Assembly: GCA_002429245.1 (NCBI GenBank)
Contig: DIZA01000002.1
Coordinates: 44,350 to 108,349, forward strand
Reading direction: 5' to 3'
Length of the DNA: 64,000 bases
From: Candidatus Saccharibacteria bacterium UBA6040
GTDB lineage: Bacteria > Patescibacteriota > Saccharimonadia > Saccharimonadales > Saccharimonadaceae
Shown: positions 26,326-37,615 of the stretch, one piece after another
How positions within the stretch are numbered: position 1 is the stretch's first letter
How the letters are laid out: each line of letters starts with the position of its first letter
Program-made: the position numbers and the translations under genes
Notes under the pieces: model-generated
The model's input: the letters and a program-made list of their open reading frames with translations, nothing else
Told to the model about the DNA's origin: nothing
The model's database searches: none

Positions 26326-26556
26326 ATGAGCCCTGAATCATTTAGTCCTAAAGCCACAGTCGCCGCTGAAAGCATTATTGGTCCGCTACCAACAGCAACG
26401 GCCGAGCAACTCGCCGCCGCCGAAGCAGGTATAAAGGCAGCAGGTTCTTATGAAGCTCCTCAACAAAAGCCCACTGAGCCACTGCAGGATCCAAATCTCA
26501 ATGAACATACTCAGAACGTGCATATAACAACTATTATTGCTCAACCTCCTAAATAG
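26326..26556 (+). CDS. Hypothetical protein (76 aa), possibly the 5' part of a frameshifted gene
   Basis: AGGAG RBS; frames overlap with the next ORF. Confidence 0.5.
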   Translation: MSPESFSPKATVAAESIIGPLPTATAEQLAAAEAGIKAAGSYEAPQQKPTEPLQDPNLNEHTQNVHITTIIAQPPK

Positions 26557-26563
26557 CACCCTC

Positions 26564-27628
26564 ATGCCTGAAGCACTACCTGACGAACTTGAAAAAGGTC
26601 CCGAAACTGCAAAATCAGTTAGTTTAACTGGTGCAGAGAATCTTCAGATGTTCATGGGCGATCCTGAGAGTTCTGAGACGAAAGCTATCATGGAAGCGCA
26701 TGGTATTGCTTTTGGTGACACTGTCGTTGTGAACGTTGAAGGCCAGAAGCCTATGGTGGTCAAAGCGGACAAGGAAGATTTCTGGACGCGTGATAAGGCA
26801 GCTTCTGAAGTGATTGCCGCAACGGTTGAGGTTTCAGAGCCCCAACCAACAGAGCTTCACGAGACGGCTAGCCTTGCCAAGATGATGATGGGTGAAACCG
26901 CACCAGACGCTGTCGAGAAGCATGAAGAACTCGTTGCCGATGCAATTGAGCCACTTGGTGAGGAGGCACTTGAGGTGACACTTGTGAATGCCGAGGCATT
27001 TGCCGAAGAGGTACCATCTGAGGGGGCTACGCCTGTAGTTGAAAACAAATCAGAGACGCCACCAAAAGAAGAACTTATTCCCGAAAAGGACGCAAACCTT
27101 GCAGGCTCGGTGGTGAACAAGATGGCAACAATGGCAGAGTCGTATCGTGACGGCTTTGAACCTGGCGAGGGCGATCATTTGCAGGCTCGGTTCATTAAAG
27201 GTGTCGCACATGACATGACAGAGATGCTACAGAAAAGTGAGCTTGGCGCTGAAGCCTATGCATTTGTGATGGGCTCACTGATTGGTGGACTTAAAGAACA
27301 GGGTTCGATGCAGGAAGTTGCACAGCTCATGCATACTTCGGGTGACTTTTCGGAGGAAGACATAAATAGGGTTCACGATCACTTTTATGCGCTTGATAGA
27401 ATTGGGAGAGAAGCTGGTCCGGACGCTGATAGCAGAAGGAGTCGGTATATATTTGACCTTGAGCAAGAGGCTAATTCGATGATTGAGCATAACGGAAACG
27501 TGCCGGATAAAGTCGCACTCAGCACCCTGGGTATTATCGCCGGCCTGACGACACACATGCAAAGTCAGTATGATGGTGGCATGAAACGATATGGACTCAT
27601 GGAGTACGTCGCAAAGATGAAAAAATAA
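26564..27628 (+). CDS. Acidic hypothetical protein
   Basis: Long ORF (track start 26537 TTG; first ATG 26564), Glu-rich; no recognised family. Confidence 0.75.
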   Translation: MPEALPDELEKGPETAKSVSLTGAENLQMFMGDPESSETKAIMEAHGIAFGDTVVVNVEGQKPMVVKADKEDFWTRDKAASEVIAATVEVSEPQPTELHETASLAKMMMGETAPDAVEKHEELVADAIEPLGEEALEVTLVNAEAFAEEVPSEGATPVVENKSETPPKEELIPEKDANLAGSVVNKMATMAESYRDGFEPGEGDHLQARFIKGVAHDMTEMLQKSELGAEAYAFVMGSLIGGLKEQGSMQEVAQLMHTSGDFSEEDINRVHDHFYALDRIGREAGPDADSRRSRYIFDLEQEANSMIEHNGNVPDKVALSTLGIIAGLTTHMQSQYDGGMKRYGLMEYVAKMKK

Positions 27629-27669: not shown

Positions 27670-27942
27670 TTAAATAACGCTGACTTCGGTTCGTTGTGCA
27701 GTTTTACCTGTGAAACGAGTTTTCTTAATTTTAGAGAAGGTAACAATACCGTCTTTTGCAGCGTGGATAGTGAAGTTACGGCTGATAAATGTACCAGGTC
27801 CAGAAACTTTAGTGCTACCAGTCTGACGAACAAGAATTTCGCCAGTATTTACTGTTTGGCCACCAAAGCGTTTCACACCAAGACGTTGTCCGGCATTGTT
27901 GCGGTTATTTTTACTTGAACCACCAGCTTTTACGTGTGACAT
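27670..27942 (-). CDS. rpmA: 50S ribosomal protein L27
   Basis: MSHVKAGGSSKNNR...RLGVKRFGGQ...ILVRQ. Confidence 0.97.
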   Translation of the reverse strand: MSHVKAGGSSKNNRNNAGQRLGVKRFGGQTVNTGEILVRQTGSTKVSGPGTFISRNFTIHAAKDGIVTFSKIKKTRFTGKTAQRTEVSVI

Positions 27943-27996: not shown

Positions 27997-28025
27997 ATTT
28001 TACTCGAAAACAGGGGAATAGTCAA
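27997..28025 (-). promoter_or_regulatory. Sigma70 promoter of rpmA
   Basis: TTGACT-17 bp-TAAAAT on the - strand. Confidence 0.7.
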
Positions 28026-28107
28026 GGGGTTGGCTGGAGGGTTTATGTTTAGCTCGTTCCGTCGGGGCTTAATAAGAAGTTAATGATTGGTGTGCTACAA
28101 TCGAGGG

Positions 28108-28326
28108 TAGCATTTCGGTGCCAATAACAATTCGGCAAACAACCTAACCCATTTCTTACTAAAGAGGTGGCATGGTCAAAAAAACGCGTAAACCATACTG
28201 ATCCCGTCGTTCAGGTTCGTTTACGCGTCATGGAGGGAAACTTTCATGGGGCCCTTAAAAAGGTCCGCTTAGCGGCGGGTTTTGTGTACCCTCGGCTAAG
28301 CAACTTTTAAAGGGTTAGGAGGATAT
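28108..28326 (+). ncRNA. Highly structured 5' leader or ncRNA upstream of a small membrane peptide
   Basis: TGC-TACAAT at 28093-28101; four abutting hairpins 28183-28228, 28229-28248 (GAAA loop), 28249-28266, 28267-28301; CCTAACCC 28143-28150 pairs with GGGTTAGG 28312-28319 over the SD. Confidence 0.6.
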
Positions 28327-28473
28327 ATGCAAAACCAAAAGACGCGTACACGAATATTAGGGATCGAATCGGATAGCCGATTAGAAACTGCAGCAGTTAT
28401 TGGAACACTCATACTTTTTGCCGTCGTGGCAGTCATCGCATGGATTGCGATTGATATGCAGGCGCGGCCGTAG
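28327..28473 (+). CDS. Unannotated 48-aa single-TM peptide
   Basis: AGGAGG RBS; MQNQKTRTRILGIESDSRLETAAVIGTLILFAVVAVIAWIAIDMQARP*. Confidence 0.75.
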   Translation: MQNQKTRTRILGIESDSRLETAAVIGTLILFAVVAVIAWIAIDMQARP

Positions 28474-28478
28474 CGAAC

Positions 28479-29672
28479 TTAATTTTTAACGAGAACAAGA
28501 ATTTCACGCGCCACAATTTGGTCGGGGCGGAAATACAGCAGCTGATCGGGACGAACGTTACGCAGTTCAACGTAACTAAATCCAAGGTCTTCTACTTTTG
28601 TTAACAGCGGCAGGTGAGTGAAGCGACCGTCGATATCTTTCCAGGCAGGGACGCCGAACACGACGGGTGTTCCTGGTTCAATTTGGCCAGCGAGGTTTTT
28701 CAAGAACTCTGAAAGAATATGGTTGGTATTACCACGTACTTCGGTCAGCTTTGAGTTTGATGGTGGCGCACTGAATGGTTGTCCAAGGTAGCCTTCGGCA
28801 ACAACGGCATCAATCTTCAACTTCTGTGGAGTATCGTTAATGTTGCTTTGCCACGTCGTTGTCGTTGCGTCACCAACGGTCCATTCGGCAGTCTGATTCT
28901 TAAAATCGTGATTGTTCTCGAGCCACTGAATATTGGCTTCGGTGTATGAGATCATTTTTTCAGCAATGTCACTTCCGAAGACGTTGTAGCCCATCAGAAG
29001 TCCTTCTTGAAGGATGACACCAGTACCACAGAACGGGTCGAGGATGAGGCCTTTTTCAAGTCCAGCGAGGTTGATCATAATCTGTGCCAGCTTTGGAGGA
29101 AGCATGCCGACGAAGGCGTCACGCTTCGGACGACCTTGGTCACGAGCGGCGAGAGCAGTGATATTCTGCGCACCAGTGCTTTCGGCGATGACGATGCCCG
29201 ATTGTCCTTTAACGACGATTAACTCAACCTTATTATCAGCAAGCCCAAGTTTATTATGGTGCGACGTCGCCGTTGAAAGGGCAGCTTCTTGGTTTGGGAT
29301 AAGGCGAAGACTGGTGCCAGTTGGCTTTAGTTTACTTTTTAAAACAAGCCCAGTTTTTTGAATGTCACGAGGGCCCTCACTAAATCCATAGGCGCTGATA
29401 CCGAGGGTGATTTTGCCGTCTTTTTTAGCCCAAGCTTTTGAATAGTGTTGAACAATCTTTAGCGAGGCGGCGCGCCAGTCACGGCCAGGAACCTGTAAGA
29501 CAACTTTGCCTGCTTTTTGAGAACCACCGAGTCGCTGGATATCGATGTAGTCGGCTTCAGCCGATGGTTGGACGAGGGCGCTGATTTCTGAAAACCAGCT
29601 AACATCGCCGTATACTCGTTCGAGTTCGGCGATCGAGATTGCTGGCTGGCGTCCCAAGATGGCGATGTGCAT
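28479..29672 (-). CDS. Putative RNA methyltransferase (Trm11/Trm14-like, UPF0020)
   Basis: LPPKLAQIMINL, ILDPFCGTG, EGYLG. Confidence 0.8.
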   Translation of the reverse strand: MHIAILGRQPAISIAELERVYGDVSWFSEISALVQPSAEADYIDIQRLGGSQKAGKVVLQVPGRDWRAASLKIVQHYSKAWAKKDGKITLGISAYGFSEGPRDIQKTGLVLKSKLKPTGTSLRLIPNQEAALSTATSHHNKLGLADNKVELIVVKGQSGIVIAESTGAQNITALAARDQGRPKRDAFVGMLPPKLAQIMINLAGLEKGLILDPFCGTGVILQEGLLMGYNVFGSDIAEKMISYTEANIQWLENNHDFKNQTAEWTVGDATTTTWQSNINDTPQKLKIDAVVAEGYLGQPFSAPPSNSKLTEVRGNTNHILSEFLKNLAGQIEPGTPVVFGVPAWKDIDGRFTHLPLLTKVEDLGFSYVELRNVRPDQLLYFRPDQIVAREILVLVKN

Positions 29673-35132: not shown

Positions 35133-36488
35133 ATGGCTACAGAAAAAAACGAAAAAATGGAGCAGATTGTCTCACTCGCAAAGCGACGTGGATTTATCTA
35201 TCCTGGATCAGATGTCTATGGTGGATTAAGTGGTACGTGGGACTTTGGTCCTCTTGGTGTCGCATTAAAGCGAAACGTTATGCAACTTTGGTGGAAACTG
35301 TTTGTTGAAGACCGTGAAGATATGTACGGTGTCGACGCAGCGATCCTTATGAACCAAAAAGTGTGGAAGGCGAGTGGGCACGTCGATACGTTTACTGACC
35401 CGTTGGTTGAAGATCTTGAAACAAAGCAACGATTTCGTGCTGACCACCTCTTAAAAGATGCCGGTTTTCCCGTAGATGGATTAAGCCTTGATCAAATGTC
35501 ACAGTTGATCAAAGACAACGATATTAAAAGTCCGAACGGTAACGCTTTATCTGAAGTGCGAACATTTAACATGATGTTTAAAACAACCGTTGGTCCAATT
35601 GATGACGAAGCCAGCATTAGCTATCTTCGTCCTGAAACTGCCCAGGGAATCTTCACGAACTACAAAAACGTGCTGGATAGCTTTTACCCCGACTTACCAT
35701 TTGGGTTAGCACAGCAGGGCAAGGCTTTTCGTAATGAAATTAGCCCGCGCGACTTTATTTTCCGTTCTCGCGAGTTTGAACAAATGGAGATTGAATACTT
35801 TGTTGATCCAGCCAAATGGGAAGAAGCATTCGAGCATTGGCGTCAGCAAGTCTGGAAGTGGACACAGGCGTTGGGACTTCCCGACGAGAACGTTCACGAG
35901 CTAGAAGTACCAGAGGCGGATCGCGCGCATTACAGCAAGCGAACTATCGACTTTGAATTCGATTTTCCTATCGGTAAAGAAGAGCTTTTGGGCCTTGCCT
36001 ACCGTACTGATTTTGACCTAATGAATATTCAGAATGCTACTGGCAAGAATATGGATTACCTGGTTAAGGGAACGAACACAAAATTTGTTCCTCATGTTAT
36101 CGAACCTTCATTTGGTGTTGAGCGCGCGATTATGGCAGTCCTTACTGCTGCGTATACAGAAGACGAGGTAAACGGTGAAACACGAACATTCTTGAAGCTC
36201 CCAGAGCACCTTGCGCCCGTTAAATATGCTGTTTCGCCACTAGTACGTAATAAGCCCGAGTTGGTTGCCAAAGCTCGTGAAGTCTATAATGCCCTTAAAG
36301 CGAAACACGGTGCAGTCATGTGGGATGACAACGGCAACATCGGAAAACGGTATCGTCGTCAGGATGAAATTGGAACGCCACATTGCGTGGTTGTCGACTT
36401 CGAAACACTGGAAGACAATACTGTCACCGTTCGTGAACGTGATACGACCGAACAGCACCGAATTAGTATCGAAGAGTTGATTAAATAA
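35133..36488 (+). CDS. glyS: Glycyl-tRNA synthetase, alpha2 (archaeal/eukaryote-like) type
   Basis: YLRPETAQGIF, RNEISPR, VIEPSFGVER, IGKRYRRQDEIGTP. Confidence 0.97.
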   Translation: MATEKNEKMEQIVSLAKRRGFIYPGSDVYGGLSGTWDFGPLGVALKRNVMQLWWKLFVEDREDMYGVDAAILMNQKVWKASGHVDTFTDPLVEDLETKQRFRADHLLKDAGFPVDGLSLDQMSQLIKDNDIKSPNGNALSEVRTFNMMFKTTVGPIDDEASISYLRPETAQGIFTNYKNVLDSFYPDLPFGLAQQGKAFRNEISPRDFIFRSREFEQMEIEYFVDPAKWEEAFEHWRQQVWKWTQALGLPDENVHELEVPEADRAHYSKRTIDFEFDFPIGKEELLGLAYRTDFDLMNIQNATGKNMDYLVKGTNTKFVPHVIEPSFGVERAIMAVLTAAYTEDEVNGETRTFLKLPEHLAPVKYAVSPLVRNKPELVAKAREVYNALKAKHGAVMWDDNGNIGKRYRRQDEIGTPHCVVVDFETLEDNTVTVRERDTTEQHRISIEELIK

Positions 36489-37615
36489 TGGCGAAGGGTG
36501 GGACCGACACAGTGAGCAAAGGAGCAAAGTCAGCTTTCACTATTGTTGAGCTACTCATCGTGATTGTCGTGATTGGTATATTGGCCGGCATTATACTGGT
36601 TGGCTATAGCGCAGTGATCAATAATGCAAATGATAAGTCCGTACAGGCCGATATATCAAAACTGGCTGATTCCGTAAAGTTGTTAACTCTTGATAATAAT
36701 GGCGTGCCTGACGGGGGCGCTACTTCATCAAACACGGGTGACTCGACAGTGTTAAACGGTATCAGGTTTAAAACTAACGTTGTCTCATATGATCAAACCG
36801 TGGCAAATCTATATTATTGCTCGGGGATGATCAATGGCACCGAGGAGTTTACTATTGTTGCACGTTCAAAATCAGGGAATGCTTACTCTTACAGTTCAAA
36901 AAGTGGTGTTGCTGGCTTCAGTGGCTACACGTGGACGGGTTCAAACAATGGGGTAGCGGTGTGTGGACTGGCTGGGTATACTGCACCATTTACTTGGTCG
37001 TATGGCTATAACCCGGCTGCGAATTACGGATGGTATGCCTGGGCGTTCAATGGAGAAGTTCTCACTAATTTGGCAACAAACCCGTCAATCGAATCCAATA
37101 CGACTGGTTGGGCAAAATATACAGGCGTCAGTGCTAGCATGACGAGGGTCACTTCTGGCGGCTGGTCTGGCACATCGTACCTTTCGACCGTCGGTGATAA
37201 TACAAACACGATTCCACGAGTATATACGGATATTCCGACTTCGGATGGAGATGTTATATCGGTGATCTTCCATGTTAAGAGTACCGGTCAAGCCGCAACG
37301 AGTGCACTACTAGCAGCAAAACTTGTCTCGGGTGGCACGGAAATCAGTACGTTTAATACGTCGTATCCTTCGTGGAGCCCAGATGCAAATGGATGGTCTA
37401 CTGCGACCGCTACATTTACAGTACCAGCAGGAGGTGATCACGTTCGTCTTAGCATGGGTCTTACGAGTGCCGCAAATTATACAGGAACAATGGGTATTGA
37501 TGGCGTGATGGCCGTGAAGAGTAGTACGGTGCCTACTTATGCAGACGGCAATACGCCAAGGTGGGTATGGACGGGGACTGCTAATAACTCCGCTTCAACA
37601 GGCCCTGCGCTGTAA
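36488..37615 (+). CDS. Type IV pilin-like protein with C-terminal carbohydrate-binding-like domain
   Basis: A/FTIVELLIVIVVIGILAGI class III signal; C-terminal TNLATNPSIE...GW and YADG...WVWTGTANNS. Confidence 0.85.
   Translation: MAKGGTDTVSKGAKSAFTIVELLIVIVVIGILAGIILVGYSAVINNANDKSVQADISKLADSVKLLTLDNNGVPDGGATSSNTGDSTVLNGIRFKTNVVSYDQTVANLYYCSGMINGTEEFTIVARSKSGNAYSYSSKSGVAGFSGYTWTGSNNGVAVCGLAGYTAPFTWSYGYNPAANYGWYAWAFNGEVLTNLATNPSIESNTTGWAKYTGVSASMTRVTSGGWSGTSYLSTVGDNTNTIPRVYTDIPTSDGDVISVIFHVKSTGQAATSALLAAKLVSGGTEISTFNTSYPSWSPDANGWSTATATFTVPAGGDHVRLSMGLTSAANYTGTMGIDGVMAVKSSTVPTYADGNTPRWVWTGTANNSASTGPAL

Follow-up and report, generated by a model that had tools for sequence, protein, structure and literature searches.

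A LOOT RNA upstream of a conserved small membrane-peptide gene in Saccharibacteria as a candidate two-state leader

What is the structured RNA encoded just before a 48-amino-acid (aa) membrane-peptide gene of Candidatus Saccharibacteria bacterium UBA6040, and might it control that gene? The locus lies in a 64,000-nucleotide (nt) stretch of contig DIZA01000002.1 (assembly GCA_002429245.1, positions 44,350 to 108,349 of the forward strand), which was analysed whole and is called the window here; coordinates count from its first letter. A preliminary description of the locus had compared the RNA with a type I toxin mRNA or an unknown riboswitch class and had recognised no family in it. However, an Rfam scan of the whole window returns a sole match, LOOT RNA (RF03000), at 28141–28266 on the plus strand, which cmscan scores at 68.8 bits (E = 8e-11; the gathering score is 46.4) with model positions 1–121 of 121 aligned. 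The leader element is, virtually beyond doubt, LOOT RNA, a known Rfam family and not a new RNA class. From comparisons with related loci, we favour on balance a reading in which 28093–28473 would form one transcription unit, with LOOT as a two-state, cis-acting leader before the peptide gene.

LOOT is a function-unknown family of the ultra-small bacteria of the candidate phyla radiation (CPR, or Patescibacteria), and no published function was found in the searchable literature. Rfam 14 lists it as a “metagenomic-based RNA” (PMC7779021), it appears in a table of Rfam 15 (PMC11701678), and it has served as an extreme case of cross-covariation, with 43 base pairs (bp) in six helices and 28 cross-covariations (PMC7657543). 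The motif is not discussed in the main text of Weinberg et al. 2017 (PMC5737381), its presumed source. We assembled 120 LOOT loci with their flanks, all oriented, from the window’s genus and from genomes across the phylum. Of the 37 genomes of the genus, 33 have LOOT; in a sample of 401 genomes from across the phylum, 76 have it, with between one and four copies per genome. The window’s genome, a near-complete 866-kb assembly of seven contigs whose window DNA is also present in soil metagenome runs, carries one. A control search of 14 well-known genomes gave no match. We considered a housekeeping RNA (6S RNA, signal recognition particle RNA or RNase P) and dropped it, as about 80% of the phylum’s genomes lack LOOT and others have up to four copies. 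In one genome of the phylum (G246), equal-scoring copies sit at contig ends (C25:1–121, C88:1–121, C25:3537–3658 and C40:4900–5021), which suggests near-identical repeats that break the assembly.

The Rfam match comprises four helices:

28141–28177, plus strand: P1, with an internal loop formed by CCUAAC (28143–28148) and CAUGG (28171–28175)
28183–28228, plus strand: P2 (28184–28228 in the LOOT core; apex 28196–28214), preceded by an A7 linker; supported by minimum free energy (MFE) and covariation
28229–28248, plus strand: P3, with a GAAA loop at 28237–28240; supported by MFE and covariation
28249–28266, plus strand: P4 (28250–28266 in the LOOT core), with a 7-nt loop in the window; supported by MFE and covariation

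The 241-nt leader stretch folds at −83.8 kcal/mol, compared with −61.4 ± 4.8 for its shuffles (z = −4.6), and the P2, P3 and P4 hairpins are part of the window’s MFE structure. Covariation was counted on a MAFFT alignment of 60 sequences (A1) that was not fitted to structure and that was also the input to RNAalifold; shuffles and slid partners served as controls here, and permuted pairs did so for the duplex energies and strand copies reported below. Across P1–P4, the proportion of paired cells is 85%, where shuffles give 65% and slid partners 29–41%, and 30 of 34 pairs have changed on both sides, so that the helices find support in relatives as well as in the window’s own sequence.

Two features of this core are close to invariant. 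The P3 GAAA loop is unchanged or nearly so among LOOT copies, and the P1 internal loop reads CCUAA(C/A) opposite (U/C)AUGG in 112 of 119 copies. Covariation links the sixth base of the loop to its partner, 48 copies combining AAA with CAU and 35 combining AAC with UAU; the window’s combination, CCUAAC/CAUGG, is a minority type present in 10 copies. The established 11-nt GAAA tetraloop receptor is CCUAAG/UAUGG, and the P1 loop agrees with it at 9–10 of 11 positions while its GAAA partner stands in P3. By this resemblance, we infer that the P3 loop docks into the receptor-like loop of P1. The P4 loop is a GNRA or UUCG tetraloop in most relatives, in place of the window’s 7 nt. P2 is the most variable helix and holds few wobble pairs (in A1, about 6% of paired cells for the lower stem of P2, as against about 17% in P3); a need for each P2 strand to match a third strand as well would predict such a scarcity.

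A conserved tail lies directly beyond the end of the Rfam model:

28267–28288, plus strand: conserved 3′ tail GCUUAGCGGCGGGUUUUGUGUA, directly after P4, with a U-rich end; absent from the Rfam model

Positions 28269–28286 of the tail pair with the P2 apex (28196–28214) as a long-range helix or pseudoknot, which RNAalifold selects unprompted from A1. The tail–apex helix comprises 17 pairs with 88% of cells paired, and 14 of its 15 core pairs have changed on both sides; for P1–P4 and the tail helix together, the figures are 88% of cells paired against 70% in shuffles and about 40% with slid partners, with 41 of 47 pairs changed on both sides. Duplexes between the tail and the P2 region average −26.7 kcal/mol for a locus’s own strands and −18.2 kcal/mol for permuted ones (117 loci). 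They cover the entire apical hairpin over roughly 17–22 bp, with covariation throughout the phylum. The closed P2 hairpin, in turn, has a mean MFE of −21 kcal/mol across the family. We judged this local hairpin by folding each sequence separately; the MAFFT columns are misaligned outside the genus, and a test based on those columns gives 67% of cells paired. Because a continuous tail helix of this length and a closed P2 cannot form together, LOOT RNA is predicted to have at least two states of similar stability.

The tail runs into a stretch of U residues. At least six U in 8 nt follow it in 60 of the 76 loci outside the genus and in 21 of the 43 within it, compared with 7 of 76 and 0 of 43 in a control zone. 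In the window’s genus this run is interrupted, as UUUUGUGU or UUCUGUGU, the window itself having UUUUGUGU, and makes a poor terminator; a terminator scan of 28090–28480 found none. The tail helix is GC-rich and is followed by the U-run, but its strands stand about 55 nt apart and enclose P3 and P4. A fold-dependent terminator made of the two is conceivable, though we regard it as doubtful.

How could this tail reach the gene, which begins about 40 nt further on? The start region and the pairings that touch it are as follows:

28317–28322, plus strand: Shine-Dalgarno (SD) sequence AGGAGG, 4 nt before the ATG
28327–28473, plus strand: 48-aa peptide gene; the product has a basic N-terminus, a single transmembrane helix and AIDxQARP at its C-terminus
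28278–28336, plus strand: tail-to-start hairpin, the RNAalifold consensus of the four nearest sequences
28340–28356, plus strand: near-copy AGACGCGUACACGAAUA of the P2 5′ strand, over codons 5–10; complementary to the P2 3′ strand at 28214–28230

In the tail-to-start hairpin, GGUUUUGUGUA (28278–28288) pairs with UAUGCAAAACC (28326–28336) over 11 bp that cover the AUG, and CCUC (28290–28293) pairs with GAGG of the SD (28319–28322). This hairpin excludes the tail–apex helix because both use 28278–28286. It is the MFE of the isolated segment in six of seven loci (the window, L121, L123, L013, L066 and L075; −17 to −23 kcal/mol) but not in L015. In L066, 14 of the pairs survive through wobble changes; in L075, an unrelated pilin gene starts with the same AUGCAAAACC. 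When ranked against 341 genes of the window’s genome, which formed the background for all pairings with ribosome-binding and start regions, the energy of the U-run with the start window (−12.3 kcal/mol) is matched by one gene. A second pairing involves codons 5–10, which bind the P2 3′ strand at −21.7 kcal/mol, compared with −19.3 for the P2 hairpin, and here too one of the 341 genes does as well. In L013, 14 of these 15 pairs are present; in L066, 13 of 15 are, with a matching G-to-A change in all three strands. The earlier proposal that the leader holds mutually exclusive pairings touching the translation start gains support in this form, with the tail sharing 28278–28286 between the apex and the start; the signal is present in the window’s clade, and family-wide it is weak or confined to a subset.

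The 5′ side of the leader contains the following:

28093–28101, plus strand: extended −10 promoter element TGCTACAAT, read from the sequence
28110–28121, plus strand: UUCG-capped 5′ hairpin GCAUUUCGGUGC, from sequence and fold, between the transcription start and the 5′ box
28127–28137, plus strand: conserved 5′ box ACAAUUCGGCA (ACAAY box), beyond the Rfam model

Read as a strong promoter, this element would start transcription near 28108. All five nearest relatives retain it, with the same letters in L121, L123 and L013 and as TGTTACAAT in L015, and TGnTAnAAT stands at the same place in most loci of the genus. The UUCG hairpin is specific to the clade: nearest relatives keep it, other members of the genus have different hairpins, and it has no counterpart outside the genus. 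The box is more widespread: in 87 of 120 loci, ACAAY precedes the Rfam match by 10–16 nt. In 32 of 49 loci outside the genus, a TAnnnT hexamer, often with a TG further upstream, lies 4–9 nt upstream of ACAAY, and LOOT RNA there therefore probably begins with ACAAUU; the window’s genus has its promoter at a greater distance, with a variable hairpin lying between start and box. The promoter, the UUCG hairpin, the hairpin series, AGGAGG and the 48-codon open reading frame (ORF) were all found where the preliminary description had placed them, and its picture of a structured, promoter-proximal leader directly before a real small membrane-peptide gene agrees with both the fold and the homologues of the peptide.

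The position of LOOT relative to genes argues for a leader. In 68 of 114 loci, as against 8 of 114 in a divergent mirror control, a co-oriented ORF of 70 aa or more begins no further than 80 nt from LOOT; the gene is most often one for a membrane or secreted protein, and its median distance from LOOT is 60 nt; most of the remaining loci of the genus have a 35–54-aa peptide ORF in the downstream place. The downstream products have a hydrophobic 19-mer within their first 100 residues in 78 of 105 cases, compared with 410 of 1,287 ORFs of the window’s genome (odds ratio 6), which is a rough background. Otherwise, the downstream genes form no coherent functional set, coding for small peptides, pilin-like proteins, zinc-ribbon proteins, DNA methyltransferases and lipoproteins, the hydrophobic segment being the only common thread. 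Seven loci of the genus (L020, L062, L063, L070, L072, L075 and L079) have secondary LOOTs immediately before genes whose products have a type IV prepilin N-terminus (GFTIVELLIVIVVIAILAA); the window’s own pilin gene (36488–37615) is without a LOOT match.

The start sites also resemble parts of the RNA itself. Direct copies of the P2 5′ strand, with its A-rich linker, occur 35–62 nt after the match, on or beside the start codon; a copy score of at least 11 is reached in 14 of 118 loci, compared with 0.34% of permuted pairs (about 35-fold). Pairing of the LOOT core is also stronger with its own start region than with permuted regions (p = 1.5e-4); the top five include the window, L013 and L066. 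These repeats were scored ungapped and with short-window duplexes, which replaced a comparison of whole LOOTs with the 200 nt downstream by RNAduplex; that approach was dropped, as it yielded giant interleaved duplexes with similar energies for own and permuted pairs. A scan found no promoter-like site in 28267–28326. Given this arrangement, we consider it likely that the leader is co-transcribed with the peptide gene.

In the mechanism that we propose for the window, pairing of the tail with the P2 apex would leave the start region free. If the tail were instead unpaired from the apex, the U-run and CCUC could fold back on the SD and AUG (28278–28293 with 28319–28336), and initiation would be blocked. 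Opening of P2 could add a second layer, in which the 3′-side strand of P2 would clamp codons 5–10, and the U-run may make the tail helix a fold-dependent terminator. The balance might be shifted by ion- or temperature-dependent compaction through the tetraloop–receptor contact, by a ligand or by a protein; because structural motifs account for nearly all conserved nucleotides, ions, temperature or a protein seem as likely as a metabolite. We hold tail-based, two-state control of initiation to be a plausible model, with slightly less than an even chance of being right. Its extension to the whole family is more speculative: LOOT might be a widespread, cis-acting, fold-dependent gate in CPR bacteria and not a small RNA, in which the receptor-braced core decides whether the tail zips onto the P2 apex and thereby governs read-through at the U-run as well as access to the start codon, with the fast-evolving, nearly wobble-free P2 helix and the tail as locus-specific “addresses” suited to the start region of each gene.

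The gene that this leader would serve appears genuine. Its closest homologues in public data are 91% and 81% identical. The nearest relatives of the peptide share MQNQxTRKRI, a glycine in the hydrophobic stretch and the C-terminal AIDxQARP, and substitutions in the membrane segment are conservative (I/V/L/M). Positional homologues of 35–54 aa occur throughout the genus, and the gene is single-copy per genome at a fixed position between rpmA and a methyltransferase gene (23 related loci). Judged by its homologues, these conservative substitutions and synteny, the 48-aa gene is real and conserved, although the peptide has no Pfam family. It had been called unannotated, which holds for this record but not for the 91%-identical, 48-aa homologue, which is annotated as hypothetical in an NCBI Candidatus Saccharibacteria metagenome-assembled genome. 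Its neighbours are as follows:

27670–27942, minus strand: rpmA (ribosomal protein L27), divergent; Pfam PF01016, E = 5e-22
28479–29672, minus strand: UPF0020/Trm11-like methyltransferase gene, convergent; Pfam PF01170 and PF01555

All or part of the arrangement rpmA (minus strand), LOOT, small ORF, methyltransferase (minus strand) is found in 23 loci of the genus, with rpmA upstream of LOOT in 21 related loci and the methyltransferase downstream in 20. The rpmA gene has a promoter-like site of its own at 28025–27997. The stops of the peptide and methyltransferase genes are 5 nt apart in the window (28473–28481), and in L121 the genes overlap by 4 nt (1644–1647). No terminator-like site was found between the two genes, and the two transcripts therefore probably overlap in antisense. 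Upstream of rpmA, a 363-aa acidic protein is encoded at 26537–27628 (plus strand), with relatives 28–36% identical in two loci of the genus and no Pfam family.

In three related loci (L004, L024 and L025), an extra element of about 100 nt lies between the LOOT promoter and the divergent rpmA promoter. It is closed by a 17-bp inverted repeat, cctgtctgaagagctac ... gtagctcttcagacagg, and has a conserved core, CTGCAGCCCGAGCGAGAAAGGCGCCGAGGCCC; the window, where 28026–28090 spans merely 65 nt, is without it. An Rfam scan of the relatives at this element returned only LOOT at the gathering score. In a sub-clade of the genus (L004, L006, L007, L011, L012, L020, L024, L025, L026 and L029), the tail core CGRCGG is repeated 8–14 nt upstream of the SD, within a spacer that is otherwise unalignable. 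This repeat, which the window does not have, could provide a second partner for the P2 loop CCCGUCG.

The strongest competitor to a two-state leader is a free-standing small RNA. It would end at about 28284–28290 at the U-run, with the tail helix as its closing element or terminator; the peptide would be made by read-through or from a weak promoter of its own, and the complementarities to the start region would reflect chance or coding constraint. Rfam indeed types LOOT as “Gene; sRNA”, and a conserved GC-rich tail helix followed by a U-run would suit such an RNA. Eight copies of the genus (L010, L022, L028, L030, L069, L073, L074 and L076) precede a yebC-type gene (MSGHSKW...) that has a TATAAT of its own. 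These copies have a longer U-run after the tail, GUGUUUUU, and no adjacent gene to lead, and they look like stand-alone transcription units by their sequence. A further locus (L080, at the syntenic rpmA/methyltransferase site of genome G027) has a decayed LOOT of 29 bits in which P1 and P2 are kept and P3, P4 and the tail are lost; a 41-aa membrane-peptide ORF follows directly after P2, and two intact LOOTs lie elsewhere in that genome. The survival of the peptide gene in L080 implies that its expression does not require an intact LOOT.

These copies weigh against the two-state leader, as do several further results. Pairing of the tail with the ribosome-binding site, tried as a family-wide rule, was rejected, not rising above permuted controls (p ~ 0.1), and the wider tail region of the window ranks only 27th of 341 against its ribosome-binding site. 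General sequestration of the SD by the leader was likewise rejected, as the predicted equilibrium accessibility of the ribosome-binding site barely differs between RNAs that have the leader (0.44) and those that lack it (0.48). Nested folds made to contain the alternative pairings lie about 13–16 kcal/mol above the window’s MFE. Both start-region targets are partly coding (MQNQ and TRTR), so that protein constraint could mimic RNA constraint, and the palindromic ACGCGU in the window’s P2 inflates apparent complementarity. Another local structure competes for the tail:

28267–28301, plus strand: local hairpin GCUUAGC...GCUAAGC, part of the window MFE; can also sequester the tail

This hairpin is a third, clade-specific partner for the window’s tail. 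The run of four hairpins read earlier does fold in the window, but this last one has one wobble in L121, is weaker in L123 and is missing from L013, L015 and L066; it belongs to the window and its two nearest relatives. Finally, two RNA-labelled soil runs yielded only low-depth contigs of relatives, one of them from a run whose library source is given as “genomic”, and no transcript ends could be placed. One of these contigs spans LOOT into the convergent methyltransferase gene, and the depth peak at LOOT is explainable by sequence conservation.

Against a free-standing RNA stand the bias in the orientation and distance of downstream genes, the empty promoter scan between the tail and the gene, the P2-strand copies placed exactly over start sites, and own start regions that pair better than permuted ones; in the window’s genus, moreover, the U-run is interrupted and the terminator scan finds none. 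We therefore regard a free-standing RNA as the less likely account at this locus, with an appreciable chance of being correct, and retain the two-state leader as the working explanation.

Is the leader a true sensor? LOOT might be a small-ligand riboswitch, or an ion or temperature sensor, whose bound state would hold the tail against the P2 apex; such a sensor would refine the two-state leader and is compatible with it. A compact fold with a pseudoknot-like helix and a tetraloop–receptor pair, the 5′ leader position, and two nearly isoenergetic states (P2 hairpin −21 and tail duplex −27 kcal/mol, on average) would all fit a sensor, but the conserved nucleotides are almost all structural and leave no obvious ligand pocket, and the downstream genes are functionally diverse. 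On this evidence a dedicated sensor seems improbable.

The preliminary description had offered a mechanism of its own, in which a helix between CCUAACCC (28143–28150) and GGGUUAGG (28312–28319) hides the SD and alternates with a local hairpin at 28149–28170, as part of a new riboswitch-like class. The two strands are indeed perfectly complementary over 8 bp. Among the 341 ribosome-binding regions of the genome, the best complement of the CCUAACCC strand is the window’s own, and forcing the helix gives −92.4 kcal/mol compared with an MFE of −92.5 in the nearest-neighbour model. However, the helix is not conserved. The two nearest relatives (L121 and L123) carry GGGUAAGG, with an uncompensated U-to-A change in mid-helix that leaves seven of eight pairs, and L013, L015, L066 and all other loci are without it; UUAGG near the SD is found in 4 of 70 LOOT loci and 10 of 341 background genes, which is no enrichment. 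CCUAAC is invariant because this strand is the receptor-like loop of P1 and not an anti-SD sequence, and forming the helix would destroy that loop. The supposed competing hairpin is the inner stem of LOOT P1, which the helix need not displace. As the class is also a known one, we consider this mechanism very unlikely.

Least probable of all is a type I toxin, with a leader that blocks translation until processing and an antisense antitoxin supplied, for example, by the 3′ end of the methyltransferase transcript. In its favour, the peptide is a short hydrophobic one whose N-terminus is basic, its SD and AUG can be sequestered according to prediction, and the convergent gene ends 5 nt away (with a 4-nt overlap in L121) with no terminator between. 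However, 23 genomes of the genus carry the peptide gene as a single copy at one fixed core-genome site, this leader family also stands before pilins, methyltransferases, zinc-ribbon proteins, lipoproteins and other unrelated genes, a scan of 28300–28480 found no minus-strand promoter-like site, and the peptide has no homology to any Pfam family, so that the toxin suggested earlier gains no specific support.

Compared with the Rfam family, the window’s element is a further member. It shares the full-length match, the P1–P4 set, the invariant CCUAA...AUGG and GAAA, and an ultra-small patescibacterial host. The Rfam model stops at P4, whereas the window and its relatives (120 loci) add the ACAAY box, the apex-pairing tail and the U-run; and Rfam types LOOT as a small RNA, whereas we normally observe it just upstream of a co-oriented gene. 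This copy differs from others in its fixed core-genome position and in the 7-nt loop that replaces the P4 tetraloop. What is distinctive here is the syntenic core-genome site by rpmA, a conserved small membrane peptide as cargo, and a start codon complementary to tail nucleotides of a family helix. As a single copy at a fixed position, before a tiny gene with a tail-complementary start codon, the window makes a good test case. If the leader reading is true, it would give LOOT a first testable job and add a CPR-specific form of gene control where few regulators are known; if the broader gate also holds, a device fixed in the genus core genome before a membrane peptide, with extra copies before type IV pilins, would point to control of the cell envelope. 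A conserved small membrane-peptide family is added to Saccharibacteria gene lists in any case.

Among known RNAs, the 11-nt GAAA receptor is familiar from group I and group II introns and RNase P, and a tetraloop–receptor clamp braces c-di-GMP-I riboswitches. LOOT has a similar pair, CCUAA(C/A)/(U/C)AUGG in P1 and GAAA in P3, whose docking would follow by analogy. Type I toxin mRNAs with long, structured 5′ leaders include hok, tisB and zorO, and Bacillus txpA and bsrG have convergent antisense RNAs. The window resembles them in having a small hydrophobic peptide behind a folded leader able to hide the SD and AUG, and in a convergent neighbour that could give antisense RNA; it differs in a leader family that stands before many non-toxin genes, a single-copy and syntenic peptide gene, and the negative scan for an antisense promoter. 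Functional parallels may also be drawn with the translational SAM-II and preQ1-II riboswitches, in which the SD is part of the pseudoknot and the gene is switched off when the ligand binds. In these, as in the proposed leader, a pseudoknot-like 3′ strand overlaps start-region function and so couples folding to initiation. By contrast, the window’s tail would release the start region upon joining the core, on a platform that varies from locus to locus.

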